A stretch of 53,995 nt of DNA from Seison nebaliae. Taxonomy: Eukaryota. The notes beneath the pieces were generated by a model that saw only the letters and a program-made list of their open reading frames with translations, ran no database searches and was not told the origin of the DNA. Shown here one piece after another: positions 48 through 46,480 of the stretch. The stretch spans positions 62,001 to 115,995 of the forward strand of contig JALJEE010002086.1 of NCBI GenBank assembly GCA_023231475.1. The letters are read 5' to 3'. A program made the translations under genes and the position numbers. Positions within the stretch are counted from its first letter, which is position 1, and each line of letters starts with the position of its first letter.

Positions 48-1165
48 ATGAATCGAATCAAATTAGTTTCTCAGGCGTTTTCAAATGCCAAATTTCATTT
101 GGTAGGTGATCGTCAAGGAATCTTTCTTGCATCAGCAATACTTTTCATACATTTGTTCCATACGATTTCCTTTTACAATGTGGTACTCTTTCCACATTTG
201 CATCGCGGTGATCTCTCAATCACAGTTCTCATCACTTATGGCATTTGTTGTCTATTGACAATCGTGTCATTTGTGAGAGCAATCTTTTCCCATCCAGGAC
301 CGGTGAAATTGACGGAATTGGATGAAGTGGTATGGAAAGTGAATAGTTTATATTTGGAGAATGAGAAACTGGATCAGCAGACAATTCTTCATTATTGGGA
401 ATGTATTCGCTCACTCCTCCAAAACAGTGAACTAAAACAAATGATGTATTTCAAAATTCGAGACGATGTCAATACTGAAAAGAATGAGAAGAAGAATGAT
501 GAAATGATGAGGAAGGAAGAGAATGATTTGAATTTTGAGAAATGTTTGGATTGGTGTGACAAATATGTTGGAAATGATCGTTATTGTCGAGAATGTCGTT
601 TGTTGAAAGGATATCAAATTCATCATTGTCGACGATGTCAACATTGTGTCAGTCGATTAGATCATCATTGTCCTTATATCAATAATTGTGTGGGAGCGAA
701 TAATCATTGGTGTTTCACACTTCTACTCTATTACACATTCGTTCAGACATTATTCGCTTTCATCATTAGTATGCTCCATTTCTGGCATTGGGTCTCCGAT
801 CAAGAAGAGTCACATATCTTCCTCATGCAACATCGAGAATTCATTTACATTCTCGTCCTCGTTAATTTAATTTTACTAGTCATGATTACCAGTCTCTCAT
901 TCGTCCAAACTTGTAACATTTGTAAAGTTTCTTCTTCGTCTTTCTTCTCTTTTTAATCTCTCTTATTTGATGTCAGGGTGTCACTGTACTCCAAGCTATG
1001 TCTCATCGTCAACGGAATTATCAGTCCAATAATCTTTCAATGCTGAAACGATTCCAATTAGTGTTTGGGGAGACTCGTTTCTGCAATTGGTTCAATCCAT
1101 TCCGTTTCCATAAAATGATTATGCCAACGCCAGTTTTTACGTTGCCAGTCCAACAAACAGTTTAA
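48..1165 (+). CDS. ZDHHC21: DHHC palmitoyltransferase, ZDHHC21-like; exons 48-926 and 977-1165
   Basis: Cys-rich domain CRECRLLKGYQIHHCRRCQHCVSRLDHHCPYINNCVGANNHW and 4 hydrophobic segments. FHLVGDRQG, VLFPH and NNHW recall ZDHHC21. Removing the 50-bp intron 927-976 (gtttct...tcag) restores the C-terminus GVTVLQAM...LVFGETRFCNWFNPF...QTV*. First ATG is at 48 (the ORF track starts at an upstream GTG). Confidence 0.88.
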
Positions 1166-2086
1166 CATGGAAAACGCGATGGAATAGACAAAAAGAATGA
1201 AAATAATGTTTTCTTTTCAAATATTTTCTACGATTATTATTCTCACAATCTCTAAATAATCTTCTTACTCATTTGAAAGATAAGAAGTTGTGTGTATTTA
1301 AATTTTATAGAATTCTATCAATATTCCAATTGTTATTATGAAGCATCGTTCCAATTTTCTATTTATACAAATTTTATTAATTTCTCTCTACTTTCCCTTC
1401 TTTACTCGCATATAACGAATATTTCACAGTCTCTTCATTAAATTATCTAAAATTGTCAAAAAATCGTTTTGGGGAATGAAAATCATCATTCTTTTTTAGG
1501 GCAACTAATTCCAGAAATAAGTTTCATTTCATTTTCGAAAAGAAATCGAACAGAAGGAGGAACTATCTGTCAAGTCAAATTTTTCCTTTATATGAACACT
1601 GAGAGAATTAAGTGAGATAAATGAATGGTAATAAGATCAATAGATTTTATGTCGATTAATGGAAAATAATTAGGATGGTTTTTTGAAAGAAAATCAATAA
1701 TATTTTTAAACTGTTGACCATTGTGGAGAGAGATATGTATAAAAAAAATTGAAAAAAAAATAAAAAGATATTTTAAAATACAATCTGATATAAAGTGATA
1801 AAATTTGGGAAATATTTGTGGATGTCGAAATGAACATCTCTTCAATATCCTCATCGACAACTATGGAACGAATTGAGAAGAAATTGACAAATGAAAAATC
1901 CTTTTACGTAATGAAATAATTGGGAAAATGTGAAGGAAAGTTTGTGATAAGATCGAATTTAAATTGAAGACAATTTTCGACGAAGTCAGTTCACATTAGT
2001 CACTCTCATTCACTTTTCGAAAGGTTCAAATGAGAGTTCGATATATGAGATGAATAATAATAATTGTCATTGGGAGAGTGGAATTG

Positions 2087-3058
2087 TTAAGAAATGATAC
2101 AATTGTCATTTTTAGTTTTTCCTTTTAATCTTTGCGATTTGCCGTTTGACGGATTTGACGATCGATTGTCATTTAATTGATGAATATTGGATGATGATAA
2201 ATTACCATTTCCTACCATTCCATGATTAATATGTCGAGGATTTTGTTCACTAATCTTCACAGATTTACATTTATTTCGACTGTTGTTATTGTTGTTGTTG
2301 TTGTGGAAGATGGAAGAGGAATTAGTGGATTGCATTGTGGAGAGATTCTTTGCACTACTCGTTAGATCTTTAGAGAGGACGTCACTCTTTGAATTACGTG
2401 GAAGTGAAGTTGATGAGATATCTTCTCGATAACGACGTTGTGATCTATTGTTGATCGAATAAATATTCTCTAATTCATTTTCTTCATATGAATCATCACC
2501 GATTGTTGTTCCATTGAGATCGTTATTGTCATTATTGGAAAAAGGAGGGAATGGCATATTGAATGCGAATGATTGATTGTCACTTTGACCACGTAATCGA
2601 TTCGCTTTCTTCGATGATACAGAAGCTGATGATGCAGGTATTTGTGGTGGTGGTGGTGGTGGTGGCATCATTGGCATCTGATTATATGGTGGTGGTGGCC
2701 AACCATATCTCATTGACATTGGATGAGGAGCATAAGGATTTGTGGGTGGATATGGAGAATATGGATGAAGATGACTCGGATGCATCATATTTGGCGGTGC
2801 CATACCATAATGTTGATAATAATCATATTGAATATTTGGTGGAATTGATTGTGGCAATTGTTGATGATAATATGGAGGAACGTTACGTGAACTTTGCACC
2901 GATGAAGCATTGAAGAATGTGGGTGATATGGGATCTTGTAAACCACCATTCAACGATCTAGTTCTCGGCATTCGACCATTCGAATTATTATTATTATTAT
3001 TCACTTCATTATTCGTTGGAGTTTTCTGATGATGTTGTGTCGGTGGTTGACCTTGTCG

Positions 3059-3089
<31 letters not shown>

Positions 3090-5125
3090 CCATAGATATT
3101 AGTTGAATAGACATTATCATAAATTTCATTCATATCGAAACGATCAAATTGAGAAGATTTTTTTGTGGAAGATTTCGGCAGAACCTGATTTGGACAATAA
3201 ACAAATGTATCGAATTCAGTATCAGTGAAATGTCCTCGACGATCTGATACTGTCGTCTCGTCCATATTGGGATTATTGTGAGGAGGATATTTCATCGGAT
3301 AGTTCGCTTGTTGACGATGAGAAGTTTGAGGGAAATTTGATTCGAAATTGGTGAACGATCGTCTCGTATTTGTTCTGCCACGTTGTTGAATCGAATTGAA
3401 ACTTTTACTTGAGGAGAATGTGGATTGTTGTGCGGAAGTTGTCGGTTGCGACTTTCTATGTTCACTCAAATTATTATTATTATTATTATTATAATTGTTG
3501 AGATATTGAATGTGATTGGAATCGATTTGATTCTCATCATTCTCCAACAAATTCTCCAATCTCATTCGACGACAACAATTGGCCGAACAATAAATAACGG
3601 AATATTTGGGAAGGAATGCCTTCCCTCTCAATGGTAATGCACAATAATAACATTTAAAACATTCATCATCTTCATGCCAACATTGTTGTCCATAAGTAAT
3701 ACGTGGCTCATCATCTTCAATATCATTCCCACAACTATTACATTTGAGATTTGGTGTAACGACTAACGAATTATTTCCTTGTAACATATTACTATTATTA
3801 CTCACTGAACTCGTATTTACATTATTATCTTGTTGTTGTTGTTGTTGTTGTTGTTGTTGGATACAACAAGCACGACATGATGGACGATCATCTCTCATGA
3901 CATACATCTCTCCGCCTAACGGTCGTTGACAATCGGAACAACAAAAATGTTCGGTATGAAAACTTTTCCCACCAGCTTCTGTACATGATCGAGTGAAAAT
4001 AATTTCATCACATGATCCACATCTTGGTCTCATCACTTCAGCATGATGACGTCCACAATATAGTTGGGAATCATTTCTAAAATAAATGAGATCCACTAAC
4101 AATTCTCGACAAACGATACAAACGAAACAAGACGGATGCCAATAAGCTGCGATCAATGTCGGTTGACTTAATCGATTCGACATATTCAACGATCGATTTG
4201 ATGACGCTGTCTCACATTCACCAGACGACTCATTATCACCAGTTGATGATTTATCATCTTTCTGAATGAATGCTAATACAGCAATGTTATTGGAAGCGAT
4301 TCGATTCGAACATTCATGACAATGATAAATTCTTGAAGAATTATTTGGAATCGACGTCACTTGTCCTCTCCCGATCGCATTCAATTTCCTTTCTTCGTTA
4401 AATTTCTCCATCTCTAGTTGTTCATCTTCTTTCAATTCATTACAATATTTTGGATCTGTATCATGAGGTGGTAATTGATGTAACATCTGTTCAATTCGAT
4501 ATCGTTCACCCGGACCATTCACTAATGGTACACGATGTTCGGGTAAACATGCAAAATAATCATGAACCATTGATGCTTTGATACCTTGTGGTATCCATGA
4601 ATATTCATCTAATGCACATCCAGAATCTTCATCTGATACTGCTGCTGATGAAATGAGATTTGGTGAATTACTAAAATTCATCTGTTCAAATGCATCGTTA
4701 TCACTTCGCATACTATTATTATTATTATTATTATTGTTGTTGTTGTTGTTGTGTGAGGAAACTAACATGGCACTATGTCGGTCAATAAAATTTTTGTTGC
4801 TATTTGTCATGATGGCGGTGGTGGTGATGGTGGTGTTTGTGGTAATTGTCGATGAGTGAATAGTTGAAAGTAGGAATTTATTATTTAAATTCGTCTTGGG
4901 CAAATCCAATTTATTGTTATTCTTTGGTTGTTTATTATTTGTCACCGTCGAAGTAGTTGAAGAGGTGGTCAAGGTTGGTGTCGACGTGGAAATACTCGAA
5001 ATTGGATTGATAGTCCCAATATTAATTGATTCATTCTCCAAATTACGATCAGTTAGATACTGAGTCCGACTATTATGCTGTTTCGCCTCTTTCAAAATGT
5101 TATTCTCCTTAATAATTGATTTCAT
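2087..5125 (-). CDS. pk: Prickle planar-cell-polarity protein (PET domain, 3 LIM domains, CAAX box), one large exon
   Basis: PET motif SDEDSGCALDEYSWIPQG...QLPPHD, three LIM zinc-finger domains (WHPSCFVC...YCGRHHAE; RPRCGSCDEII...FHTEHFCCSDC; CNSCG...WHEDDECFKC) and the C-terminal prenylation motif CIIS. Poly-N and poly-Q tracts are present. An in-frame acceptor AG at 5138-5139 suggests an upstream exon. Confidence 0.95.
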
Positions 5126-6549
5126 CTTCTCGTATTCCTATTGGGAAATGATGAGTGCATGGGCTATGAGGAACGTGTGAAGATAATTATTCGTTCTTCG
5201 TTTGACCTCTCCTCTCCCCTACCCGTATCTATTCCCGATGTGTCTCGTCGTCCCCTTTTTAATTTGGAAGTATTAATAAGAATTCGTTAATTTCATCGAG
5301 TATCACGATTATTAATTGCTATTCATTGCTAAAGGCAATTCAATAAAACGAAAGGAAATCAACGGACATCAAAGTCAAAGAACTTGAAAAAATATAAATA
5401 ATAGAATTCTAGATAAAAGAAAAAATGATGGAAATGTCAATAAATTCAATATTCTTTCTCGTCTTTCTCTCTCTCCCTATTCTCTTCTCAGGATCGAAGA
5501 GAAGAATAATTTAAACACATCTTGCATCTTTAAAGAGGATTATTGAAATTCTTTCTCGTATTCTCTCATTATCCAAAACGACTAAATTCCATCTCGTCTT
5601 CAATTCGATGCCTTCAATCAATGTAATTGGTGAGAGAAGGAGACATTAAAACATTTCGAAGGGGAACTAGCGAAAGAATCAATTAGATCGCACAATATTT
5701 ATTGGTGATTTCCCCGCTTCAAAACTCTACCAACTATTTATCTGATGTTCCAATCGATTTCCTCTCTAAGATTAGAGTGTTCGATTACTCGTATATGTAT
5801 CTGCCTACATATCTCCCAAGAAAGAATGACCAGTGTGTTTTAATGAAACTTATGAAAAGGAATTTAATTAAATCACTCCTCTTCATATTCACATCGGAAT
5901 TATATTATCCTCATTCCATTTCTCCAAATTTATTACAAAAGTTAATTCCATCGATTGATGATATGATGAATATGAGATATCATGAATATGTCATGAAGAT
6001 GAAGAAAAGTTGTCTTGTCTTAATAAGAAGAATTGACATTAAATGTCTCGATCGATTTTCCAATTAGAAATTTCAATAATAGCCTTCGTCGTCCACTAGT
6101 TGAAAATATAATCGACTTCGGCATTATTCGCTCAATAGTAATTTCCCAGACAACAATTGCCATGTATTGGCCTTCTCTCCCTTGTTTACAAAGAATGCAC
6201 ATGCTTTCCTCATATATAACACTTCCATCTCGTTCGCCATCGGCAGCAAAGGGAGAGAATATAATAACTATTCCTTTCTATTTAACTTACATAACATTGG
6301 ATAACTATCAAATAGATAAATATTTAGGATATTTAGACATACAAATACATAATATTATTAATGCTTCCAATGATGATGATGATGATGGTGATGATGATTT
6401 GAATGGTGTGAGAGAATGATGTGTAAATATTTAGATCCGTTTATATAGATACATATCGATTTAAGTGAATGAAGATGATGAAATTATTAATATTATTATA
6501 CAATGTGAATTCATAAGACATTTAATCAGTTAGGTAGAGAAGTCAAACA

Positions 6550-6656
6550 TAGATAGATAGATAGATAGATAGATGGACGTCGAGATGTAGTGTTGGTAGA
6601 TCGAATATTGTACGAATATAACAATTCAATTTGGTGATCGAAGGTTAGATGAAGGC

Positions 6657-12600: not shown

Positions 12601-12861
12601 GAAGAAATTCGATAAATTTTTGATGAATTTAGCTGAAAATTATCGTTGAATGGAAGGAATGAAAGAAGATGGAGAGACTTTACACAAAACAAAGTGATAA
12701 TTCATAAATTATAGTTACATTCTTTTCCTTTTCCTTCACTATCATCAACTTCTATCCTTCCATCAGCAATCATAATGGAAAGTAGTTGGTGGTGGTGATA
12801 GTGATGGTGATGGAATGCAGCATGAATGAAAAGAAAATTGTCGTAATAATTGTTAATTAAC

Positions 12862-12968
12862 CAATTTTCTTATACTGTCGAGTGTATTGACGTGTGAGCA
12901 TTGGAAGCACATGCTACGCCATTATTCACCCAATCTCTTCCATGCAGACACGATACGTGACCTGGTGC
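12862..12968 (-). pseudogene. Decayed caspase small-subunit (p10) exon fragment
   Basis: The minus strand reads APGHVS(C)/MEEIG* and then, after a frameshift, SMCFQCSHVNTLDSIRKL|gttaat. This matches IPGHVSYRMEDTG...TIFFQYAHANTLDSLTKL|gttagt in the caspase at 22778-22895. The nucleotide block ctgtcgagtgtatt is shared. Confidence 0.75.
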
Positions 12969-13313
12969 TTGCTTACTTGGAGAAAATTGTTTCTGATGAT
13001 ATTTGCCGTTTCAGCAATTTTAAATCATATTGTATTTATATTTCCAGTTATAAAATGATTTGAATAAAAATTAATTTTTATGTTCACTTCTTTTAATTTT
13101 AAATTTTAAATCAATATCTGAAATTTAGCATGTAACTTACTTCATCATGTTAGCAGCACAAAAGAGTCAAATTGTATTAAATACCATATTGATGATGATG
13201 ACGACATTGTTCTACAAAGAAACAAATAAGCGGTTATATAATACAACTCCGAAAATGAAAAACAGGGTGAATTCCTCCATAAGGTGAATATTGCTCCGGG
13301 ATTCATTTTATAA

Positions 13314-14317: not shown

Positions 14318-17300
14318 TTATGGAAAAGGACGTGGTCGGGGAATGAGTCTCCGAGGAGGATTTGGTGGTCGTGGATTACGTTTATTTGACGGTTTACTGT
14401 CCGGCCATTGGATTGGTTCAATTGTTGGTTGATCTAAAAAAGAAGAAATAAAAAATTTTGTGAAAAATCATTCTAACGACGTTGGGGAGAATTTGGTGTG
14501 GTTGAAGGTAGAAGGTTGGAGGAGGAAGCGGAGGTAGGACTGGGAATGATGGAAGAGATTGAATAAATGTTAGAAGATGTTAGACCGATGTCACTTTCCT
14601 CAAAAGTCGTTAACGCATTATTATTTTGATTGTGTGATTGATTGTTTGAGGTGAGAACGATTTTTGGTAAGTCGAAATCGTTTTCTGATGATTTTGTGTT
14701 ATTGGAAGACTCGTCGATGTCCAAAGGATCGTCGTCCGATGAAATGATGTCAATCTCGTCAGTCGAATTTGATTCGTCATGACTTATTCTCGATCTCTTC
14801 TCATCGACTTCATCCTCATCCATCGACCGTTTATTCCCGGTCGTATTACCATCATCTGATTGAGGAATGATATTTAAAGGATTATTCGTTGTTGATTGAT
14901 CAACATTATCTTTTTCTTCTTTGTCTGGATGAAGAGTCTTGTTGAAATGTTCCAGCGCTTTATTTCGACAATTTAATATGATATATTCTTTCTGTAACGA
15001 TTCGCGTTGTTTCTGCTCCTGCTCGTAATTCTTTCGATAATGAAGACACAATTGAGCAGTTTTTGAAAATTTCATTTTGATATTTTCCAATTCTTTAAAC
15101 TTTTCCATATTTACTGCATTCGTTTCATTCAACTTCTCCGTCAAATCTTCCCATTTCGTTTCAGACTGATAAGATGAACATTCGATTTTGTAGATTCTTT
15201 CAATTTCCTTCAAATTCTTCTCATATCTCTCATTCCTTTTCATCAATTCCTGATAATTCTTATTGAGATGAATGGTCATTCGATTACATTCTTCATTCGA
15301 CCGTGACAATTCCTCATTCATTCTCAACAACTCGTCATTCCTCCTCGTTATTTCTTCATAATTCCTATTCAATTCGTTATAATCATTTTCTAATTGTGAA
15401 ATCTCTTCCTTGAAACTCTCTTCAATCGTCTCATTTTTTGATAATTCTCTTCTCAATTCTTCTTTCTCATCCTCTACACTCTGCAACACCTCTGTCAATG
15501 GAACTGTTTGTCCATTTTCGCTCGTCAACGACGAATTCCAATGTTCAATTTCCTTTTCCGCTATAGCAAGTCGAGAGATCAATCGGAAGTTTTGTCTAGT
15601 AACATTTTCATAATTCTCTTCCACTTCGATCTGTCTCAATAACATGGATAGACATTGTGTGATACCTTCTTTCTCACATCGAATTTCTTCCACTTTCTCA
15701 TCAATTTCTTTTTCATATTTATTTATCCCAATTATATTCATCTCTCCTCCTTCTCTTAGAGTGGTTAATTCTATAATTATTCCATCAATTCGTTTCGATA
15801 TTGTTTCTTGTGATCTCTTTAAATTTTCTCCTTCCAATCGAATCTTCTCCAATTCTCTTTCATATTCATTTTCTAGATGAACGACGGTTTGATTCAATTC
15901 CTTCTTCTCCAAAGTTAACGTCTCTAACGTTTTCTTCAATTCTTCCATGGTCATGTTATTGGTAAATAATAAATTATTCGATTTCGTCTCATTTTCTAAT
16001 AGAATTCGATTATCTTTCTTCATATTCTCCAATTGTTCTTTCAAATCTTCCACATCGTTCGACTGATTCGTCATCGTTTCATCGAAGTATTTCAGTTTGT
16101 CATCATTCGATGAGACATGAAAATCTTTCTCGAAATCGTCACCATTCTTCTCAATCAATTCACATTTCAATTCGTTGTTCAATTTAATGAAATCGGCCAA
16201 TTTGACATCTTTCTCCCTCGTCACTTCTCTCAGATCGTCCAATTCTTTTCTCAATTCAACACTCTCTTCATTCCATGAAACTAAATCTTTATCTTTCTCT
16301 CTTATCTGGAATGCAATCGAATCGTTCAACAATCGATAATCTTCTTCCAATTGTTTATTGAGATCAATTGACTGATCTAAATTCTTTTGAATTGTATCAT
16401 GTTTCTCTCGTAACATTCGATTCTCTTTCAGTAACAATTCATGTTGTTTTTTCACATCGATTAATTGTGTTTCAAATAATGAAACAGATTTCCTATTCGT
16501 TACATTACTTTTATATTTACTGCAAACGGACATATCACTCTCATCATTTTTACTTTCACGTTCATTCTCCATCTCTTCATTCCCATCAATAATGATTTGA
16601 TCATATTCATTATATTTCAGTTTAATCTCATTCAACTTCTTCAACATTCTCCTCGATTCATTCCTCTCATCTTCCACCTCTTTCTTCAACTCATCCATTG
16701 AAATTCTATTCATTTTCATTTGATCACTTAACGTCTGGTTGATGGAAGTGATCTCTATTAATTGTCTTTCCAATTGATCGACAGTTGTTGAATATTGTAA
16801 ATTTTCCATGTGATGGAATTGTTCTTTTTCTTTCATCATCATCTTCACATCTTCTATTTCTTTCCTTAATTTCAAATTATCTTCATCAGATGTCGATGAC
16901 AATTTACTCTCTATACTCTCCAACTTCATTATGAGAGATCGTTGTGAATGATATTGCTGCTCAATCATCATATCCCTATTTAATTGCATTTCATCATATT
17001 GACGACGATAATGTCCTAAAGATATTTGAGACTTTTCATATTCTTTTCTCAATTCACTCAATTCTTGTCGGTCATTCAAAATATCTTTCTCTATTTTTAT
17101 CTTCTCTTCTCTCAATTGCTTGACAGTTTCCAAAAAATTCGTTTCCTTCTCTCCGAACAAATTCCGTTCGATAATCAATTCATTAATCTCCTTTTCATGT
17201 GTCGCATTATCAATCTGTGCGGTATCGTAAAGTATCTTTATTTCATTCAATTCATTACGCAATTTACATTCATCTAATTTGTTCTGTTCCATTTCCATCA

Positions 17301-21587: not shown

Positions 21588-21793
21588 GTGTGATTATTCC
21601 TATTTATTCGTGTCATTTTCCATAATTAAATTCAATCATTTCATTCGATCAATTAGATGAACAACTTGAAATCGATACTATTCAAATTTATTCAAAAACG
21701 AAATGATATGAAATCAATTTGTATGATAATGAAGGAGATTATTGGAAATGAAGAACATTTGAAATTATTTAATTTATTTATTTTCGATTCCAA

Positions 21794-22483: not shown

Positions 22484-24084
22484 TTACGGATTGAAGTAAA
22501 CATGTTTTTGCAAATATCCATGGGCTTCCGTTATCTGGGAATACTGGACGTCGTGTAATGGAGATTGAGATCTGCAGACCATGTCCTTTTGAATCTGTAA
22601 TGAATAAAAATATATGTTAGACGATGATGATAAAGAAAATTTTATTAATTCTTATAGAAATAACATAATTTTTTCTAAAGAAAAAATAAGAATTATGTAA
22701 AAAAAAGTGATAAATTCGTTTCTTTTATTATTTTTCATTAAGTCAACTAATAATGAATTAGTAAAATTTTAACTAACTAATTTGGTGAGGCTGTCGAGTG
22801 TATTAGCGTGTGCATATTGGAAAAAGATTGTATAAAGTGATTCGATGAATCTGGATCCTGTATCTTCCATCCTATATGACACATGACCAGGTATCGTCGA
22901 ATAGAAGACGAAGAAGTCCAATCTTTTCGGAAGTTCGAGTGTAATATCCCTGGTGATATGTGTGTTCTTGGTGGGAGTATTGAGGGCAACAGCCAAATCC
23001 GATTTCAATTTAGCATACATCTCCTGTTCGTTCAGTCTCGTTTCTTCGGACTCGGCACCACGACAAGATTGAATGAAAAATAATTTGGGTTTGTTCAACA
23101 GAATTTGATTGAAATTATCGAAAATTTCCTTTAACTGATAAAGAATGATGAAAGTAAACAAATGAACGAAGGAATAACTCCCATGGGATATCCGTCACAG
23201 AAATAAATTTTATCGACATCCCCATGACTTAGAATACATACGATGAGAGCATCAAATTCATTTGCGTTTGATCGCTTAGCGAAATCTTTTAAACATTCTT
23301 CAGCGAACTGAAAGAGATGGAAAAATTGAGAAGAAGAATTAGATTAAACGTCGAGTGTGCCATTTTGGAGAACGAAGACATTAAAATTCAATTCTTGCCA
23401 TAAATGAATTAAACGATTGCGGTCAATATCGGAACCGATTCTATTGGAGAAAGTAGTGTTCTTATAAAAGACGTTGTTGATTATCAAAACATTTCCATGC
23501 GGTTCATTATACATTGAATAATAGCCCACGTTGTTCTCGTTTTCCATTTGATTTATTGATTTGTTGACGGTAGGAGATTGAATGTTCTGATTGAATGTCG
23601 AACTGACATATGAAGAATTCCTAACAATTCGACTGGAAGTAATAAACTCACATTGACATTCATCTATCGTCAATTTTGATCTGATATTATCATTCGATGA
23701 ATTAAAAACATCATTCGTCATTTTATACAAATTATATTTCAATTCAACAATTTGATCTGATTTCAACATGAATCCATTTAATTTGTGCAATTCATTCCGA
23801 AAATAATCCAGCACCGTCTTATTCTCGTTCAAATTAGTGTCCAACACATTGAGAAACTGAAAGAATATTTTCTTACTAAAATGTTTCCAGATATGTGTGT
23901 GAAGTGTCCGAATTGCATATGTCTCATTTTGAGAATTATCCACCTTAATTTTGGGAAGATATCGACGTGTCATCTTTTCAATCAACTTTTTTGGATTGTG
24001 CAATTCATTCAAGAGGACGAGTCTCGATCCTAGCCAGATGTCTAATAAATCCGAATGTTCATTATTTCCTTCTTCTTTCTTCAT
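22484..24084 (-). CDS. Caspase with long N-terminal prodomain (initiator type), ~443 aa; exons 24084-23350, 23307-23179, 23134-22778, 22594-22484
   Basis: p20 motifs GNVLIINN, RIGSDIDR, catalytic ILSHG and KPKLFFIQSCRG; p10 motifs DFFVFYSTIPGHVSYR, GSRFIESL and terminal KHVYFNP*. Three phase-0 introns of 42, 44 and 183 bp. Confidence 0.92.
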
Positions 24085-24569
24085 TCTTAATCTACCGATG
24101 TGACAAACCTAAATGTTCAATATCAATCAATTAAACTTAAATTTTTAAATGTTCTTCTTATTTCACATTCATGCATTTACTATCCTCATTAATTCATTCG
24201 ATTACAACATGTATTCCTTTTTCAAAATTTTAAATGAACAAAAAAACTATTGAAATATTTCTTAATTTTCATCATTTTTTCACACAATGGTTCTTTATGA
24301 GATTTCTATCAATTAGAAGCCTTACTTTCAAGCAACCACCTCATTTGACACCTCCCATGGCAAACGACTATTTTATTAATGTGATATTTCATACAACATT
24401 CATCGACAACGGAAATCTCAGTTCAAGTCATTCAAAATTTAAAAAAAATTTAAAAACTTTATACAAATCTTGCTGAGAGAAAGTTGATCTAATACCAATC
24501 AATTCCAAATTCAGAATAAATAATAGTTTCATATCAATAAATTAAGCACATAAATATAATATCCTAAAT

Positions 24570-25846: not shown

Positions 25847-26459
25847 ATCCTAATCTAGAAGAACAATCTTTTTTTTTTTAAATTGAAATACCCGTTGGTA
25901 TAAATTGAAAGTTTGGATTGAACTTCCTTACGATCAGTGGTAGGAGCCTACGCACGCACCATAATTATGGAATTCTGGAATTTAAAGATAATCTAATAAT
26001 AAAGTAGAATTTGGAAGATGAATCAAAAATCGCCCATATATTGTTAATCGATAGTTGGAACTTAATTCTAATTGAACAATATTTTAATCTAGATGTTGGA
26101 CAGTTTTTCATAATGTCACAATATTCGATTATGAGACTTGACATATCTAATAAATTAACGGGGATAAGAGAAGCGGCAAGAGAAGGATGTTGAGAAGGAA
26201 TATAGTAAGTTTGTTGAATTAAAGGAAATAATATGTGGCATTGAGAATCGGATTCATTTGTTTACGAATCCTTGAATATAATTCTTATTTTTCGTTATGA
26301 TTAACATAGTAATAATGTACACATAAGTGAGAATTGGATGAGGTGTAAATTGAAATTATAAAAAAATATATTAAAATAAGTTGTTGAGGAGTTTTGGTGA
26401 TTGTCAATTAAAGCGGATAACTTCCCATTCTTTGTTACTTCTACTACTATCATCATTGA

Positions 26460-28763
26460 ATGATGAATCCGAACATCTCCCTTTACAATAATTCGGTTTC
26501 CATCCAATTCTTCATTTCGCTCTTCACCTTCATGATTAGTGTGTCAATTTGCATAAATTTCCGAAATTGGAAAGATGTGATTTTGTCGAAGCTACCGAAA
26601 CGTGTCATTTCGACGAAGGATTCATTCAATATGTTCAAATAATTTACTGTTCCATACCAACCAGATTATTTGGAGCTGGTCTATTTGCTTCAGTTTCATT
26701 TTACTTTCTTTGAACAAAAAACTCGTTTTCCTTCAAAAGTTCCTCTGGCTACTTGTCCTCTTTCTCACTTTGGGTATTACTGCTGATTCATTGTTAATCC
26801 ATTTTGTATTCATCAATATCATCCTAAAACGAAATTTTAGTTTCTGTAAAAGTTTAACAGTCATCTCACAACTGTTGGGAATTAGTGAGAATGTTGCTGG
26901 TGTTACTTTTCTGGCTTTTGGCAATGGAGCAGCCGATGTATTTTCCGCCTCCATCGCCATCGTTAATAGTAAGGATGCTGATCCTAGTTTAGCGATTGGT
27001 TCACTATTTGGTGCTGGAATATTCGTGACTTCTGTGGTTTGTGGGGCAATAGCTATACCGAAACCGTTCCAATCGATGAAACGACCAATTCTGAGAGATA
27101 TCATCTTTTATCTCGTAACCGTTTTTTGGATCTTCAAATGTCTCTACATTCATCGTATTGATGTTATTGACATATCAAGTTTTATTCCAATTTTCTTTCC
27201 TTTCATTTCTTCTTCTTCTTCAAGTTTTCTTAATTCTTTACGTCATTTACATTGCTACCGTTATTACTGGTCATGTTATGTATAATAAAAGTAAAATGGG
27301 TTAGGAATCAATTTTATTATATCCATTCCGTAACTGACGTTTAGAGGACGCCATGAGAATATTGTCACATTCTCCATCCGAATGCTCATTAGTTTTGGTG
27401 AATAAGATGAAAATAGTACCAGTCAGTTACGATAATCCAGTTCTCCTTCTTTCTATCTTCATTAAATATCATTCCTTTCTCTCATAGACATATGTGTCGA
27501 CAGTGGGCGATGAAATGGGACTTGACGAACAGAAAATAATTAAACCACAGGCAAGAGAAGAAGAAGAATTGGATCGATTGAGATCAGATAAGAAGGAGAT
27601 TGTTCCGAAATCAATAAAAATTGAAGATCGATTAGAAGCAGAGAAAGTGATAACTCAAATGAATCTATCACAGTTATGGAGCGGTCTCTCCCCAATTCAC
27701 ATTCACGAATGGCGAGAAATGAATTTGTTGAATAAAATACTCGCTTGTGTTCAAGCTCCCATTACTTTAATGTTACATTTAACTGTGCCAGTGGTGGATA
27801 AGGGAGTGGAAAATAATAATTGGAATCGTTTAGTGAATGCTTTGCACGTTTTAACTTTTCCACAATTCGCATTATTTGCGACAAAAAGTTTCTTTTTCTT
27901 TCTCAATTTTTGTCGTTTAATTAATTTAAACATTTTAGACGCTTTTATTATGATTACTCCTCATTTGTCACTTTATGCATTCATCTTCATCTTAAGCACA
28001 ATTGTTATGTCACTTGTTCTTCTAACATCACAAAACAATTTCCCACCAGTCTATCATAATGTTCATCATTTCTTTTGATTGTTTCCTCCTAATCATCCTT
28101 TTATCAATCTCTTATGGACGACACATCTTTTTTCTTAGTTTTTCAGTTTTATTGGATTTGCTAGTTCAATTATTTGGATCTATATTGTGGCAAATGAAAT
28201 CGTCAATTGTCTCCAAGTTCCCGTTGAATTCTTTCATTTTTCAATCATATCTCATTCAGATGGTTGGATACGCATTCAATTTAAGTGACACAATTGTCGG
28301 GCTGACATTTTTAGCGTTGGGCAATAGTGTTGGAGGTTTGGTCGAATAGAATGTGAAGATGTAAAATTTGATTTTATTTCAGATTTCGTCGCAAATTATT
28401 TTAGTGCGAAAGCCGGTTATTCTCGAATGGCGATAAGTGCCGTTTATGGTGGACCATTATTCAGTTTTGTTTTCTAAAAAAGAATATTAATTCCAACATT
28501 AAAATATAGATATGTTGTTGGGATTGGGAATTCCGTTCGCTTACAAGTTCGCTCAACTAGGTACGAAGTCGATCTACTTTGTACCACATACAATCGAATA
28601 TATTTTGGTGGTGGCGCTGGCGCTCAATCTAATTATCGCAATGATTTATTTAACTTTAAACAAATTCTATTTCTCGAAGGCATATGGGTATTTTTCCATG
28701 GCATTCTATCTAGTCTTCCTCATAATTGCCATTTTAGCCGAATCAAATGTAATTAAATTTTAA
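26460..28763 (+). CDS. SLC8B1: Cation/Ca2+ exchanger, NCLX/SLC8B1 (CCX) family; 12 exons. Introns: 26496-26539, 26693-26739, 26793-26840, 27179-27224, 27300-27344, 27440-27487, 27888-27938, 28061-28138, 28217-28259, 28336-28382, 28464-28509
   Basis: Alpha-1 repeat SENVAGVTFLAFGNGAADVFS, alpha-2 repeat GLTFLALGNSVGDFVAN...GYSRMAISAVYGGPLFNMLLGLG, N-terminal Cys motif CVNLH...RCDFV...C...GFIQY...YC, plus TADSFFCKSL and LTVPVVD. Splicing the 11 listed introns gives one continuous frame. Confidence 0.92.
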
Positions 28764-30633: not shown

Positions 30634-32999
30634 ATTTGAATAAAATAATATTTGTTTGAAAGAACAATATCTAAAATTTTTGAACTAGTAAAAACCTCTT
30701 AATTCCTCGTTTTTTTCTCCCTAAATCCGTTATACATTCTTTTGCCAATGTTTTAATGTTTGGTCTATTCGTTGTTGGAAGATCGTTTTGGAATTTTTTT
30801 CAAATTCTTCAAGTCAATCACTTCCATCTATTCGAGTATATAATAATAATAACTCATAATTCGTGATCGATTCAACTCTACGATAGGATATGATATGGTC
30901 GTGTCAAATCGATGGAAGAAAAGAGTATATGTTATGTGGACGATACATGGTATTATACAATTTGATGATTCGTTTATCTATAGTGGGCTAGGAACTGACG
31001 TAACTACGTATAGAAATCGAATTTTCACATTCTTATCTTCTCTTTGTTGCAGGACTGGAAAGAAGAAAAGATAGAACATAAGAATGTATTAGTTATACAT
31101 ACGATTAGGTTTATACGTAGAGAAAGTGGGAAGCAAAAGAAATAAAGAGTTTCTTTGCCCCTCCCTTAATACGGTACGAGTGAGTAACTTTTAAATTAAT
31201 TTTCATTAAAACTATATCATCGAATGGTATCATTATTCCATCTACTACTATCAGAAGAGAATGCGAATACGATTGTCAATTATCCATTATTCCGAAAGGA
31301 AGATAATGGGAAGAGGATAAGGAAAATTCTATTCTTATTTAGAAATAAGAAATTAGAAAACCTTTAAAGCTTTCTTCTCTTACCTGGAAACCATATCAAA
31401 TTCTTTATTAATTCATTTGTTTTATTCCTTCTGTCTCTCTCTCTCTCTGTCTTGTCTCATTCAATATCTACTTCATTGTTGACATTTACGTCATTTTCAA
31501 TATTGAATTCGCTGCCTCCTCAAATGGTTTGATCTCATAAAGATATATATCATGACCGACTGCCATTGGATCCGGTACGAATTGGAACAAATTCCAATAA
31601 CGTCATTTCTCTCCATTCTCTCTTGGAGGAGATGAACCATTTGCCTTAATGAGAAAGTATTCATTTATAATGTCAACTTATCTCATAATTAGATACGTTC
31701 GTTTTCAATCATCTTTCCAATGATTTCTCAAGAAGAATAAGGAAATTCCTGATTAATATTATAATAAAGATAATAAATGAAATGGAAGATTCTTCCAAAA
31801 AAATCTATTTATAAATGTTCTAGAACATCGACTTTCCGTGTTTCGTTTGTCAGTCGACGAATTTGAGTTGGTGGGAAGTAATGGAAATTTTAATGAAAAT
31901 GATAATACTGATAATGATAGGTTGAATATGTGAGAGTTTTTCTCTTGTGCCTTGCATGACAGTTGGAAGAATATGCAATTAATGAGGCATGTTACGTTCT
32001 GATAAATCAGTTATTCAGTTCCATTCGTTTCATTCAGTCTCTAATATTGATTGGAATTAAGAAGAGGGAATGCACAGATTAAATGAAAAGACAAAAAAGA
32101 AAAGAAGAAAAGAATGATAAAGAAAAAGAATATTAGAAGATGAAATGATAAAAAAATTCAACTAACCAATTTGAAGTTTGGTGATCGGTTTCTTTTCTTT
32201 TTTGAGGGGTGGATGGGGAATTTAATTAAATAAATCTTTTCGCAATTGCTGTCGGAGAAATTGAGTAGCAGCAAGTAGAGTCGTTGCATAATAACTGCAA
32301 ATCAAATTATTGATTTACATATTTCATGTAATTCGATCATTCATTCATCCATGTGCACATACGTATGTCGATTATAATATAATAAGATTGGATAAGATGA
32401 TGATGATGTTGTTGTTGTTGTATATGAGATTAGATGATGATAGTTATATCAGTGAAATTAAATAAAATAAGAAAGAAAAGAAGAATTGTTAAGTTGAAAG
32501 GAAGTAAGATTAACGAACGAATTTAACGATGAAGAAAAGTTGTCGAATGTCCACAAGTAGAAATGAATGAAATTAGATAATCTAAATGGATTCTCCTCCT
32601 TACATCGCCGATAGAGAACATACGACTTCCAGAAGAAGGATAGATAAATAGATAGATAGATTGATTGAATAATAAGAAAACTGATATTCATGTCGAGAGA
32701 ATAGAATCGACTTTTAATGAAATATAATATTATTTAATCGAATGAACAAATCATTTTAGCGCAGTCACATGTCTCTAACAACAATGTCTAATTCGTCTTC
32801 TGGGACAGATATTGTGCGAGCGTAAGAGAAATAATTATATCAATTATCAACATTATCATCTTCAGCAAATTCATTTTCACTCAATACACACATACACACA
32901 CAAGCACAAGAACACAGATAGCAACGATATGAAGATATCCAAATTTATTATCTCCTTTGTAACATAAAAGCGAAAGTAATTGAGCAAGAGAAGAATTCT

Positions 33000-34730
33000 A
33001 AATAAATCTCGAAACTAATATTGATATTGCTTCAGCACTTGTCACCAATTCCGTCGTTGTAACTTTCTCTATATTGCTCATAATTTCCGTCTTTTCATTT
33101 TACCCAAAAATAGATCGACAAGAAAAAAAATCAAATTAAATTATGCTTAGAAAAAATGATCTTCTCAATATTCAGTTTTTTATGCTTGATTCTATTACGT
33201 CAAACAAACAAAAGAAAATTCCTTAAAAAATCCAATTAATCGTTAACAAACCATTGATGGTTTTAACCATAACTGATGAATTCATTCCATTGTATAAGTT
33301 AATGAATTGAGCAAATTAAATAGTCAATACCTGAAATTAGAAGAAACGTTTTACCAACAATTACAGTCTGCAAATGATCGATGATATGGAAAGGAGTTCG
33401 ATACTGTTTAGAATTTATCGGAAATTCTTCCCAGAATTTGAACGACATCAAATATGGAATGAATTGTTCCAGTGTAGTTTCTTTGAAGAAATTACGTTCA
33501 ACATTTTCCTCATTCCAATTCATTGTCAATTGCCGACGTATTTCTTTATAATGTTTCGTGGAAATGATATTGATGGCAGAGTTGACTTTCTCAAAAATGT
33601 TGAACGAATAGAAACTTTTTTTTAGATGAAATTTCAATTAACAAATTAATTTATACGACTAACAAGATAAGAGCAAAGAAGATTTTCTGACGCTTCTCAT
33701 CTTGACAACATTCATTCGTTTGCAATTCATATCGTTTGATAAATTTGGAATAGAATCGTTGAGTTGATTGTTTGACATAAGTTGAGGTGGAGTGAAGTAG
33801 ATTAAATTGAATATAATAAGAATTATTGAATGAATTAATGTCGTTCTGTAGATCTACAAATAATTCATTATCGATCAAATGAAGAATTCGCGAGTTTCTG
33901 CCGTTTCTAACAAATTAATTGAGAGTCGAAAAGGAAAATTAATGAACATTTCAATATTACGATGGAATTGCTTCAACAGCGGATCCAATTCATTCAAAGG
34001 GAAATATGTCAGAGAGCGGTTGAGTTGTAACAGAGCATTTTCCAGTTCGATAATATAAAATTTCTTCTAAAAGTCAAATGTCAAATGACAACGGAAGAGG
34101 AAGAGAAATAACATTTTCCACTTGAATTGAATGACTTTGTTGAATTTTGTGCTCAATTTCATCATTCTCATCGAATTGTTCCGTTAGTAGTTGTTTGTCA
34201 AGATTCAAATAATAATTCCTGGTAAATGAAATGTTCGAATATCGACTGTTGTCCGATAAGAATCGTCGAATTATTTTTCTTCTCAAATAATAATAACTTC
34301 AAGTATAAGGGAGATGATCGAAGATAATGATTATCTGAAAACAAATTTGAATTTCCTTCAACAACAAATCTTAATGAATTCTAACAAATGAAGGTCTTGT
34401 CGATAGCTCCACTATTTACATTGTGTGGTAGGCAAAGGACATACGTCGACGTATTCACAGAAGGACAAGGAAGTGGATCCTGTTGTTTTGGTCGATCTTG
34501 GGAATTTTCTAAAAAATTCTATCAATCCAAATTTCATGAACACTGATGATCTTATATCTGGTTAAGCAAACTAGTAACTTTGACTAGCAAAATTAATTGC
34601 TCAATTGATATATCCATCAGACATATCAATTTCCATTTGAGTCAGATAATATTTTTGGGAGAACAATTCGTTCAATCCAACAGGAAATGGTACAGAGACG
34701 TCGCTAATTAGAAAGATATCAAATCATCGA
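33000..34730 (-). pseudogene. Decayed multi-exon gene of unknown family
   Basis: Two short GTT-AG introns (33907-33947 and 33615-33663) join three segments into one frame: ...KQFHRNIEINGRNSRILHLIDNELF...FALIFFYSFNIFEK.... Flanking parts carry in-frame stops and frameshifts. Boundaries are approximate. Confidence 0.45.
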
Positions 34731-35347: not shown

Positions 35348-37354
35348 TGTAACGGTCGTAAGATGAAATGAAAATATAGAATGTTCCCGTAATGTTACAA
35401 GATGTGACTCTCGAACATGATTGCGTCATGGCAATTAAACAAATAGGCGACGAAGCTCAACTGATTAATACTACTCGATCGAACATCAACTCACTCAAAT
35501 GTCAATCTTGTAATGTTTTATTTATGTGAGATTAATCAAAAACCGAGGTTGCTGCATTCGAAAAGTTACTATAAAAGCAGTCGTTGGATTGTTGATTCTC
35601 AGTCAATCGATATAGAGAATATCCTGATTTATATAATTCTTTTCCCTACTCATTTCCCTCGGGTTGCAGAAAGGAGTTAACCTTTACGTTTCAGTCAACC
35701 CTTTAATAAAGAAAAAGAACCATTTAACTTTTTTGCAAGGAACGGAGTAGTAAACCCATTTTGTCGAAAAAGAAATGAAGTTAACCCATTTCGTCTAAAA
35801 AAGAATGAAGTCAACCCATATAAATTTTTTTTTTTTTTTTTTATTATAACAAATCCCCTCGGGGCAAATTAAATAGAAAAAATGATAACTCCATAAATAA
35901 ACTATAAATTATAAAAAAAACTTCATTTTAGTTTAATTTATTAACTAATTAATGAAAAAAATTCCCCAAACTGGGATTTAAACTAATAAAAAAAATAAGT
36001 AGAGAAAATTATTTATTATTGGAAAGGCATAGTTAATAAGAACAACAATTTTATTCAACCATCGATGTTTAAAAATTCATTTGAAATGTACGAATCTGGT
36101 CCTCCATTTTTCGGAATACAATTTTATATTGCCGGAAAAGATACACATCCAAAGGTTGCAATACAGATGTTGTTCCTGCGGGAATTATTTCAATATCGAT
36201 CAATTGTGTTTGCTTATGACCGGACCAAGAGTCGATTACTAATAATTTTGTGCAATTATTTTTATAGGTCATAATACAATCTTCGACATATTTTTTAAAT
36301 AAAAAGGAAGTCGATTTGCCGGATTTTGTGGAGCATAAATAAATATTTGATGGCACTTTCAACGACTTCAATACTCTAGGTCCAAATTTGTCGGAACACT
36401 CCTGTAAAATGAGAAGCATTTTTGGAAAAACAGTTCCATTCATTGCGATCGTCGGCTGAAATGTGTATGAGTGTGTAGTTTTGTTGGATGATTCGATGGG
36501 AACAAAGGTTTTTTTTCTCCTTTGTTGCTTAAAGTACGACCACCGTGATTTTCATAATTCAATCCTGATTCGTCGGTGTTAATGATGATGTCATATTTTG
36601 ACATTAATTCGCAGATTTTTCTTCGAAAGTTATGTATTATCGTAGTATTTCGTTATTTTTTGGCTAACAAATCGATGAGTTTTCTTAAATCGATAGAGCC
36701 ATGAAGAAGAAGCACTGAAGAAATTAGTAATGTTTAATTTACTTGCTTCTTCTAAAGCAATTCTTCTTATGGTTTCGTCGTGCACCGATTGAAAATTTTC
36801 CCGCATTTCAACAATTCTACTCTCAACAATTTTGTCCAATTTCGAGAATTCATTTTCGGATTTGATATGGGTTCGACTATTGATAATATTAAAATATACA
36901 CTGTTATTTTTAAGTTTTTTAAATCGACGTCGAGCATAATATTCGATATTGAAATAATTTCCCCACGAATATTAAACATTAATTCTTCATTAAAAATAAA
37001 TTCGTAATAATTCAACAAACATCGTGGAAAAAATTTAATTCCTAGATAAGCTAAATTTTTAAACCGAAGAAAAAACGAAAAAAGTTTATTTTTGAAGTAC
37101 CAACCATTTAGGTATTAGGGACTGAGCTTAAACGGGAGCCGATTTTGATTGTACCAAAAATTTTGTAAATTAATGTTCTATAAGATGGTATAAAATTTTT
37201 TAATGTTTTCCATCTCTCACAAGTGAATGTTCCCTTGTCAGTTGAGCTTCGTCGCCTATTTGTTTAATTGTCATGACGCAATCTTGTTCGAGAGTCACAT
37301 CTTGTAACATTACGAGAACATTCTATATTTTGATTTCTTTTTATGATCGTTACA
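35348..37354 (-). mobile_element. pogo-like DNA transposon with 117-bp TIRs and an internally deleted transposase (~36060-36850)
   Basis: TIRs at 35348-35464 and 37238-37354 (tgtaacggtcg...gacgaagctcaactga). CENP-B-type HTH (VHDETIRRIALEEA...SASSSWLYRFKK) and DDE_1 motifs IINTDESG, THSYTFQP, LVIDSWSGH, IIPAGTTSVLQPLDVY. Frameshifts present. Confidence 0.9.
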
Positions 37355-37407
37355 TAGAGGAAGATAAGTTAATGTAATTTTGGTTTAAATGAATTAAAAG
37401 TTTGTTT

Positions 37408-37480
37408 TGGAGATGCCGGGTTTCGATTCCGGTACTTCGTACATGCAAAGCAAGCGATCTACCAATTGAGCTACATCCCC
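37408..37480 (-). tRNA. trnA-UGC: tRNA-Ala (anticodon TGC)
   Basis: GGGGATGTAGCTCAATTGGTAGATCGCTTGCTTTGCATGTACGAAGTACCGGAATCGAAACCCGGCATCTCCA: 73 nt, folds as a cloverleaf, has the G3:U70 Ala identity pair and a downstream TTTT Pol III terminator. Confidence 0.93.
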
Positions 37481-42800: not shown

Positions 42801-45800
42801 CAACTTTCCTTCTTGTAATTACGTTCCTTCTTCTTCTTCGTTTCATATTCTTCGTCATTCAACTTCCTTGAATGATATCGTTCATTATTTACGATAATTT
42901 GTCTAGAAATCGAATTGACATTCTTTTCAATTTGTTTCCTCCTTTTCAAACCAACGCCACTATAAATATAGATAACGAGGAAGTTGCCAATTGTTCCAAT
43001 AATGCTTAAGCACACAAGCAATATAGCAAAATAAGTGAAATTCGCATTCTTTTCCATTACCTTCTTACGAACGTCATACTAGAAGTAAAAGAATAAATCA
43101 ATAAAACCATATTCCGATTTTATAGAATTAAAATTTCCCATTTAATTTCAAAAAGTCTTAAAACTACGATGTATCATCAGAATAATTTAAAGGATTAGTT
43201 TGGGAGACTATGTGGATTTAAGGGAAGAACAATAAATTTTAAAATGAGGAAAAGTTACTTAAAATCGGGGAAATCGGAACAAAGCGAACGGTGAACGCTT
43301 ACGGAAATTTCCGTTAATCTTTTTAGCATTTTTTATAAAAATAAATTTCTTTCCAGTCTTTTCATCATATATTCCATTACTAGTTTTTTTTGTTTATCGT
43401 TATAATCATAAATTCAATAAACTTCTTTAAGTGAATATTATTATAATTTAATTGATGTAAGCACCTTCATTTCCATTCTTATGGAGAGTATTAAAAGAAA
43501 CACAATAAAAAATAATCTTGAGTGGGTTCAAATGTATTGAGAGTGTGGCACAAGAACAGAATATAAATAAGCAATCTGGTTTGATCGTATCAATGCCTCT
43601 TATTAAGGTAAGTGCGCACGGGATGACGTGAGAGAAAATGTAGAAATAGAAGAATAAGAAGTGCTTCTCACAAATTGATGTGAGACTGTTGAAGAAGAAA
43701 TACGAATAAGAAAAAAGAACTTTCGTTGAATATTTTCAATAAAATTTCGGAGAAGAAAAGAAGACAAAAAAAATCCATAAATATTGAAAGTATTCTTCCC
43801 ATACAAGCGTAACTATCATTTTCATATGGAGAAATTCTTCTAATTATTTTCCATTTATTTACCGCTCAATGGTGTGGGGGTTCAATGGTGTTAAACACTT
43901 CGTGGACCGGACCGACTCCATATTTGTACCTACTCTTATTTTTCTTTGTTGCGGACATTTCACGTCGTTCCATTAATATCTCTATGGTTATTATATACTA
44001 TATCTGGAAATGTTACTACTACCATTCTTCATTATTTGAGATATAACAATTTAAAAAAAAATTGTTTTTAAGTATGACATTCGTATTTCTCATACGGAGA
44101 GTAGAAGAATTGAGGGTAGGTGAAGTTTGAGGTTGAAAATTATTGACGTAAAATTAGAAGGAAATTGTCATGATCGACAAAATTATGACAGGACGTTCGT
44201 CTGACTGAGGGATTAATTATATCTCAAAAAGATTCTTCAAGATATTATGCACAAATCATACATTGTTGGAATATTTATTAAAAAGAATGGTTTCTTTCAT
44301 TTTAAGTCCAACTCTCGACATATAAGGACATACTTCGAAGATATGAATCATCTGCCAAGAAAAGAATTAATTGAACGATAGAGCTTTCGTCAGACTCAAC
44401 TGGTGAACGAACAACCAATTAACCGAAATACTATAATGAATAGTAGTAGACTTCTTTCTTAGAATAGACGAAAATGAGAAGAAGTTGCTGATGTAGAGGA
44501 ATGGATATGGATGAATGGGAATTGCTCATTTAAAATATTAAGGAAAAGGAAATTATTTTTAAATTACGTAAATGTTGAATTCAGAGGGAGACTTAATAAT
44601 AATTGTAATTCGTATCGTTAGAATTAAATGAAATTGAAGTTAATTGAATAAGTTACAACAATAATATATTTCTCCAATTTATGCCAATAAATTTCACTCA
44701 AAGAGTGAATGAGTAGAGCATTAACTAATTTTGTTAGAGGAGCTGTCAAAGACAATAATCGTGACTTATCCCATAAAATACTTTAACTTCGCTAATGCTT
44801 ACAATAAAGAACATGAAGATTTCTCTTTATTTTCTCCCGCTCATTCGACCAACTCTTGTAAGTTAAAAGACGTTTCCCATTGGGAATGATGTTACTTTTT
44901 TATATTTTCCAATCATGTAATAGATAGATTCAATCACCTATTATTCCTCTATTTTAGTCGATTGTGTTCATGATTGGTATACGATTCGATCGAGCATTCA
45001 TTAGAAATAAATTTCATTAAAAAAAGATTTTGTCATATTATTGTCAGGAACAGTAAGGATAGAATTATGATATACTATGAAAAAGTTATTCCGTTCGGAA
45101 AAGAGTGGCAGAAAATACTATTTTACATAATTCTACTTATCTGACATGCAACCATTTCCTACAGTCAAACAGGAATATCAAAATTATAATTTTATCAATT
45201 CTTTTCCTGTCAACTTGGGAGGAATAGGAGAAGAAACGAGTGAGAATTATCAAATTGGAATTGGATCGTTTCCAATTGAATGAAAGTGAAGCGGTTTACC
45301 AAAGTGATAATAAATATTCCCGATTAAAATTCAATTTAAAAAGTGTTTAGATGAGAAATTTGTGTTTAGGGTAACGGAGCCGCTGGAGAGATGAACGAGG
45401 AGGTTGTTCTGACGAACAAAGTAGTGATGGGCAGTTTGATCATACAGGTCGTTTGACGAATACGTTTCATTGCGAATCGTATTAAAAATAATTTAAAAAA
45501 TAAAAATGAATAAGGCTTTAAAAAATGGTTGACTGATGTAATTAGTGGAGTGGAAGCAAATAGAAAACATGTTCTCTAATACGGTTATTCATCGATGATA
45601 GAGCATCTCTCATTATTTCGCTCAGTGGCCTTATTATGTTTGGAATGAATCTCATTGGAAATAATTCTCTCAAAAATATTAATAATATCTTTAGAAGACA
45701 TATTATTGCATTCGATTTTGGTATAAAAGAATTTTTAATTCCTTGCGAAAATCATTTTCCTAGATGATTTTCATAAATCTATAATTATGATAATACTGGA

Positions 45801-46480
45801 AGATAAAACAAAAAAGGATAATTGATAATGACAATCTCATGAAGAGCTTTTCTAATTCAAAGAAAATCATCTCAATAATCTATTTATTGTCCAGAACACC
45901 ATATCAGGTAAATTTCGTCTAACATTTGTCTGTGTTCGTGCTCATCGCGAAGAGACAGTAACCCTAAATTCTCCCTAAATTATTCTCCCTAATATCCGAC
46001 TAATTTTTATTGTCGGAGCATGAATCAAATCTTCTCCCCACACAATCACATTCTTCCTCAACTAACCTCGTTATATGTAGCGATGGTGACGAAGATGTTC
46101 GAATCCGGTTGTGCTTGGAAGTAGATATCGTTGTTCAAAACCATCCATTCAGACATTCTCATTGATACATTATTATTTGCTGCGACAGATTCCGTGTTGT
46201 GATCATCAGTTGATTGCATGTGCGTTGGAAGATATTGTCGAAATGGATTTCGATGATTACTAAAAAAATCAATCGCAGTTGCAGCAGCAGTATTGACATA
46301 AAAATTCTTATCTGTATTAGAAGATATGATATTGTGAGCTGATTGATCTGCTGACGATATTTGTAATGATGTTGATGGTGATCCCACCTCGATTGCATAA
46401 TTACAAGAAAAATTCGTCAATTCATGCCCATAGATGTTAAGGTTGGGTAATATGTTATTGTTACAACTATCCATATTCAT
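39851..46480 (-). CDS. Rhodopsin-class (family A) GPCR, peptide-receptor-like, ~1210 aa; exons 46480-46067 and 43078-39851
   Basis: Seven TM segments with GN (TM1), LAIAD (TM2), Cys and DRF (TM3), SYLP (TM6) and NPIIY (TM7). ORF 46058-46510 ends at GAG|gttagt and joins in phase 0 to ctag|TATGACGTT at 43078, supplying an Asn-rich N-terminal ectodomain. The first exon is less certain than the 7TM exon. Confidence 0.88.

Follow-up and report, generated by a model that had tools for sequence, protein, structure and literature searches.

A purine at the third intron base (+3) of the donor, or 5' splice site, is one of the features that animal introns conserve most strongly. Whether an animal can abandon it is a question raised by Seison nebaliae, a seisonid rotifer (Seisonidea) that lives on Nebalia crustaceans and has a compact genome of ~44 Mb (PMC8351084): in the window considered here, the whole 54 kb stretch of contig JALJEE010002086.1 that was analysed, every intron that could be placed starts with GTT. 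A preliminary description, made from the letters of the window, had listed 17 donors with T at +3 and proposed a genome-wide change in donor recognition. All 17 were found at the genes and with the hexamers given there, and the collection examined here comprises 27 introns from six unrelated genes, all within this one window (Table 1).

Fifteen of these introns were placed by alignments of RNA-derived transcripts, 11 by the NCBI protein record for NCLX (nine of which are also backed by homology), and one by reading frame. The ends are GT-AG in 27/27 and the donors begin GTT in 27/27. The transcript evidence consists of GMAP alignments of Trinity transcripts (PMC8351084, Additional file 2; 19,906 rows covered), in which transcripts were located by matching chains of exon and intron lengths (e.g., M357 D44 M129 D42 for the caspase and M256 D49 M234 D50 M119 D46 M133 D52 M37 D51 M133 D60 for the VPS9-domain gene) and adjacent rows were also read. 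The rows read give 15 distinct junctions within the window, spread over four genes (Tpr-like, caspase, VPS9, and G protein-coupled receptor (GPCR)); all are GTT...AG, 13 of them without slide, and no nearby GTA or GTG donor is used. For the Tpr-like gene, where a gtc donor 3 nucleotides (nt) upstream had been left open, the donor is gttaga because the RNA removes 44 nt. At the VPS9 donors 34385 and 34112 the RNA picks GTT although an in-frame GTA or GTG is on offer, while no frame-compatible GTA or GTG donor occurs in the tested spans for the DHHC, three caspase, Tpr-like, and GPCR introns; for the DHHC intron, the frame allows just two GT donors in that span, a GTT form of 50 nt and a GTC form of 74 nt. 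The GTT feature is genuine, confirmed by RNA in four genes, and well beyond what chance would give.

The VPS9-domain gene had been taken for a decayed gene and is instead intact and expressed, based on exact protein mapping (P0344 and P0345, isoforms of SNEBB_001766, both match the window exactly when spliced), RNA, and a Pfam domain. It contributes nine coding introns, of which the first spans 34578-34519 and is GTT in both the protein record and the RNA, and one intron in the 3' untranslated region (UTR) that is new, being absent from both the preliminary list and the protein record, for a total of 10 GTT donors. Two acceptors 9 nt apart (33898 and 33907, minus strand) yield the two NCBI isoforms, with only the 50-nt form among the RNA rows read. 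Trinity isoforms that keep introns 14434-14477, 23135-23178, and 33615-33663 coexist with spliced ones, and these retained short introns could be pre-mRNA or the result of inefficient splicing at weak donors.

For NCLX, the protein record P0224 (SNEBB_001765, S. nebaliae) maps onto the window letter for letter, with 100% identity over exon 26842-27177, compared to 53–64% for the next among 120 matches listed; each of the 11 introns has exactly one GT-AG reading and all are GTT. An independent test scored 50 other frame-compatible GT-AG pairs near the introns with a hidden Markov model (HMM) built from 57 non-Seison homologs (every second of 114 with suitable length). GTT is the only or best donor for introns 1–4 and 7–11, with a 27-nt GTC form and a 24-nt GTT form as the nearest rivals at intron 7, while homology leaves the donor undecided for introns 5 and 6, whose GTA/GTG alternatives score within 2.1 bits: a GTA at -1.6 bits for the former, and a GTG and a GTA at +1.1 and 0.0 bits, respectively, for the latter. 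Spliced transcripts of NCLX and of the DHHC gene were not found among the transcript-table rows covered (all 19,906 for the NCLX length chains). Contigs of two sequencing runs cover NCLX unspliced and without differences, though these are possibly the source of the window itself and not independent support.

Against a decoy set of 906 non-donor GT sites from the sense strand of seven genes, 318 of which are GTT (0.351), the probability of the observed donors is 5e-13 for 27/27 and 1.5e-7 when the RNA-supported 15 are taken alone. Under the most demanding background, the share of intron-internal GT sites followed by T (0.586, 29 sites), these values rise to 5e-7 and 3e-4, respectively. Treating the 27 introns, all from one window, as an independent sample, the GTT share has a lower bound of 0.895 (one-sided 95%). 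The changed donor code proposed in the preliminary description is supported by the introns in hand, with GTT in 27/27 and the two usual animal donor classes at 0/27 (NN//GURAG) and 2/27 (AG//GU); its genome-wide part is likely, extrapolated from six unrelated genes in a single 54 kb window. By eye, most gaps of 40–90 nt on many contigs are entered as deletions instead of introns, often with an 'indeterminate' direction (Additional file 2, parts 1, 20, and 21), which would be consistent with an aligner that turns these sites down throughout the genome because of its standard donor model.

Beyond +3 the donors are loosely defined. Composition is A12 T9 C5 G1 at +4 and G10 C7 T6 A4 at +5, T is found in 15 donors at +6, and the last exon base (-1) is A12 T7 G5 C3; +3 T is invariant while +4 to +6 vary freely. 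Compared to the GTT decoys, GTTAG (7/27 vs 10/318, p=9e-5) and GTTAGT (4/27 vs 3/318, p=9e-4) are enriched, while GTTTG (1/27 vs 15/318) and a G at +6 (4/27 vs 52/318, p=0.67) are not. Nineteen of the 27 introns are 42–52 nt in length, most of which carry little beyond GTT, whereas GTTNGT occurs in 5/6 introns >100 nt and 1/21 short introns (p=4e-4; a split noticed post hoc, with several motifs tested). Together with the enrichment of GTTAG, the long introns therefore indicate a GTTAGT-like donor where the donor must stand alone. The signal beyond +3 is weak and its optimum, GTTAGT, is the GTRAGT consensus with +3 changed to T, in the normal register. The U12-type donor motif GTATCCT, of which GCATCCT is a variant, is present in 0/27 donors. 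The two donor classes nearly missing here, NN//GURAG and AG//GU, make up 53.6% and 45.1% of human donors (together ~99%; PMC11732430), and GURAG and AG//GU make up 44% and 32% of donors in C. elegans (together ~76%; PMC11347140). At the other end of the intron, the exon resumes with A or T in 26/27 (25/26 vs 827/1065 other AG sites in the 26-intron set, p=0.013), such that the usual AG|G bias seems to have disappeared at the acceptor as well. Inspection of the 27 introns by eye, without a control, showed no branch-point consensus.

The reading somewhat favored here is that the GTT rule rests on a U1 small nuclear RNA (snRNA) with the pairing box ACUAAC instead of ACUUAC, a prediction drawn from the donors. 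Position 6 of U1 normally accepts A or G at donor +3, as a pair or a wobble. An A at this position would accept U alone; 'purine at +3' would become 'U at +3', while position 5 of U1 would still prefer A at +4. The predicted 5' end of Seison U1 would be AUACUAAC under this proposal and AUACUUAC under the canonical alternative, the published canonical sequence being AUACUUACCUG (PMC4856993). U6 would tolerate U at +3 through a G.U wobble with its ACAGA box. Recognition of short introns would rely mainly on intron length and a T-rich YAG end, with GTT as a check, and old introns would have been converted, not replaced. On the last point, internal deletions in homologous proteins (38 deletions, 116 homologs) have edges that coincide, to within one residue, with NCLX introns 2, 4, 5, and 11, i.e., 4/10 introns beyond the N-terminus where a rough count would expect ~1, a modest and indirect suggestion that these positions are old. 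Normal-register matches beyond GTT separate donors from GTT decoys (area under the curve (AUC) 0.66, p=0.003, 26 introns), and GTTAG is enriched, while GTTTG, which pairing with U6 alone would make the optimum, is not.

An ACUAAC box agrees with what remains of the consensus, GTTAGT, and finds a precedent by analogy in Entamoeba, the one described lineage with U at +3, where GUUUGU donors are accompanied by a co-evolved U1 with ACAAAC (bioRxiv 10.1101/2022.06.08.495308). As in Entamoeba, U at +3 is the rule in Seison, the register is normal, and the GT-AG ends are kept (27/27). At +3 Seison works like the Entamoeba system, with the donors as what has been read here and the U1 compensation as a prediction. 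Entamoeba, however, is an amoeba with few introns, and its donor is a strict hexamer (88–90% GUUUGU) changed at both +3 and +4, whereas Seison is an intron-rich animal in which +3 alone is fixed, +4 to +6 are degenerate, and GTTAGT is optimal; the Entamoeba-type hexamer GTTTGT occurs in 0/27 donors and GTTTG in 1/27.

Several observations weigh against a compensating U1. No U1 was found within the 54 kb window, for which Rfam returned only a tRNA at both thresholds. In most of the donor shifts known, namely those of Saccharomycotina, Giardia, Trichomonas, Thecamonas, and Micromonas, U1 stayed the same, although these are +4 shifts (bioRxiv 10.1101/2022.06.08.495308; PMC10581693). Even the variant U1 is predicted to pair only weakly with the donors (mean -2.9 kcal/mol; AUC 0.58 vs all GT decoys), and a count of base pairs lacks the power to separate ACUAAC (AUC 0.75) from an Entamoeba-type ACAAAC (0.80); the gain of both over canonical U1 (0.55) is circular because the variants are built on +3 T. 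A at -1 is mildly enriched (12/27 vs 84/318, p=0.04), as expected if U1 paired one base out of step, and METTL16 is scored Missing by BUSCO in Seison alone of 25 syndermatan genomes (PMC12256650 supplement), which points to the U6 side. A pattern for a U1 with A at position 6 matched nothing in metagenome contigs; Seison is not expected in these contigs and the result is uninformative on its U1. The canonical pattern matched 126 loci, which carry AUACUUACCUG, plus one chance-looking viral sequence.

The main rival, unlikely but deserving serious weight, holds that U1 is canonical and that U at +3 is enforced later, at the hand-over to U6 or by proteins, with loss of METTL16 leading to loss of U6 N6-methyladenosine (m6A), an altered ACAGA box, or an altered SNRNP27K, U1C, Luc7, or Prp8 as candidates. 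In addition to METTL16, the U5-40K, SPF45, and LSm2 BUSCOs are Missing in Seison and SNRNP27K is Complete, though the METTL16 call is weak because 356 of 954 metazoan BUSCOs are missing in this genome (PMC12256650 supplement). Loss of METTL16 tracks a donor change without a change in snRNA in yeasts (PMC10581693), GUU sites are taken up in two examples of switched donors from C. elegans mett-10 mutants (PMC11347140), U at +3 is able to lengthen pairing to ACAGA (bioRxiv 10.1101/2022.06.08.495308), and +4 is mixed in the Seison donors. In the METTL16/SNRNP27K-linked switches in Saccharomycotina (PMC10581693) and C. elegans mett-10 (PMC11347140) donor preference shifts upon loss of the U6 methylase, and Seison, where METTL16 is scored missing, may be comparable. 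Those switches, however, turn A to U at +4 and favor AG//GU rather than acting on +3, whereas in Seison +3 is changed, the best donors keep A at +4 in the enriched extension (GTTAG 7, GTTTG 1), and AG//GU is rare (2/27). A change in U1 and a change on the U6 side could both be present. Of the other BUSCOs, SPF45 and LSm2 are, like METTL16, Missing from no genome but that of Seison; U5-40K is also Missing in one bdelloid and ZMAT5 in Seison as well as both acanthocephalans (PMC12256650 supplement).

It is improbable that U1 is lost or marginal, as in the red alga Cyanidioschyzon (PMC11732430), with donors picked by U5/U6 and intron length. The donors do pair poorly with any version of U1 tried and 19/27 introns fall in a narrow range of lengths, but Seison is intron-rich, with multi-kb introns and alternative splicing (PMC10125929), and the GTTAG optimum looks U1-like. 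Similarly improbable is a canonical U1 paired one base out of step at A|GTTAAGT-type sites. This +1 shifted register is known from atypical human donors, where it is rare, and can also give GTT donors after an exonic A (Roca and Krainer 2009, as cited in PMC4856993), consistent with the mild enrichment of A at -1; yet it predicts G at +6, which is not enriched, and A at +5 is depleted (4/26), +6G+7T is found in 2/27 donors vs 8/318 decoys (p=0.18), the long introns carry GT at +5/+6 and not at +6/+7, and a shifted-register score does not separate donors from GTT decoys (AUC 0.53, p=0.31, 26 introns).

It is very improbable that the pattern is local, or that a relaxed spliceosome has let donors drift toward T, with GTA/GTG donors being common in other parts of the genome. 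While a single window was sampled, the introns are 47% T, and one Micromonas chromosome is mentioned as having a regional splice code (bioRxiv 10.1101/2022.06.08.495308), the 27/27 count has P<=5e-7 under every background tried, +3 never varies where +4 to +6 do, and six unrelated genes agree; canonical-type GTGAGT/GTAAG sites in transcribed exons are also left unspliced in the transcripts read, a weak point as decoys exist in any animal. An origin of the introns as copies of one recent intron-generating element that happened to start with GTT is scarcely credible, for despite their narrow range of lengths the 21 short introns share no similarity (best local score 13 vs a mean maximum of 12.5 and a 95th percentile of 15 in 100 shuffles) and no inverted ends, and several intron positions look old.

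The placed introns and the other features of the window are collected in Table 1. The labels 'Tpr' and 'ZDHHC21' used in the preliminary description are unconfirmed, with Pfam giving DHHC for the latter and nothing for the former. Protein searches with the Prickle frame returned only 40–47% relatives among the matches listed.

Table 1. Introns, genes, and other features of the Seison nebaliae window (positions within the window)
Feature	Position	Strand	Description	Evidence
DHHC palmitoyltransferase intron	927..976	+	50 nt, aaa|GTTTCT	frame only; Pfam DHHC
Tpr-like coiled-coil gene intron	14434..14477	-	44 nt, gtc|GTTAGA	RNA alignment M321 D44 M4880
Caspase intron 3	22595..22777	-	183 nt, tta|GTTAGT	RNA
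Caspase intron 2	23135..23178	-	44 nt, gga|GTTATT	RNA
Caspase intron 1	23308..23349	-	42 nt, gac|GTTTAA	RNA
NCLX gene SNEBB_001765	26463..28763	+	11 introns, all GTT, 43-78 nt	P0224 mapping; homology 9/11
NCLX introns 1-6	26496-26539, 26693-26739, 26793-26840, 27179-27224, 27300-27344, 27440-27487	+		
NCLX introns 7-11	27888-27938, 28061-28138, 28217-28259, 28336-28382, 28464-28509	+		
VPS9-gene 3' UTR intron	32041..32166	-	126 nt, ttg|GTTAGT	RNA
VPS9-domain gene SNEBB_001766	32222..34617	-	9 coding introns, all GTT, 46-390 nt	P0344/P0345; RNA 9/9; Pfam VPS9
VPS9-gene coding donors	34578, 34385, 34297, 34112, 33947, 33663, 33358, 33015, 32518	-		
Rhodopsin-family GPCR intron	43079..46066	-	2988 nt, gag|GTTAGT	RNA; Pfam 7tm_1
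Prickle	2087-5137	-	1016-codon open frame without coding intron; poly-N/poly-Q rich	covered by unspliced transcript
Decayed partial caspase copy	~12860-12990	-	ends at site matching caspase intron 3 with gttaat; left out of count	
DDE transposon relics	36069-37114, 20500-21600, 24500-25850			Pfam DDE_1 at 36072-36551; other pieces by eye
tRNA gene	37408-37480	-	anticodon TGC (Ala)	Rfam; anticodon by eye

No report of a GTT-donor rule for Seison or any animal was found in the literature searched, though subscription journals were mostly beyond the search and an earlier notice is possible. Neither a paper joining Seison, splice site, and snRNA nor donor logos for bdelloids, monogononts, and acanthocephalans or a rotifer donor consensus were found. 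The passages on Seison in PMC8351084 and PMC10125929 do not discuss donors, Seison is unmentioned in PMC10639083, and splicing is unmentioned in the main text of PMC12256650. Among animals, Fritillaria borealis likewise has a spliceosome that reads changed intron ends, with reduced U6 m6A, but 95% of its introns escape GT/AG (PMC13326754), whereas Seison keeps GT-AG and fixes one inner base.

For an intron-rich animal to fix T at +3, a great many sites had to change in concert with their reader, a joint change so far described mainly for an intron-poor amoeba. Seison offers a natural test of the open question of whether U1 or U6 sets the donor consensus, as the two models predict different snRNA sequences, and the change can be dated with the genomes of its free-living and parasitic relatives (monogononts, bdelloids, and acanthocephalans). 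The Seison genome would be expected to mislead gene finders and aligners that were trained on GTR donors. The chances appear about even that Seison is the first animal with a genome-wide recoded donor, in which thousands of ancestral introns would have gone from GTR to GTT alongside a one-base change in U1 (ACUAAC), possibly eased by the loss of U6 methylation, leaving donors that the spliceosome of a human or a fly would largely ignore.

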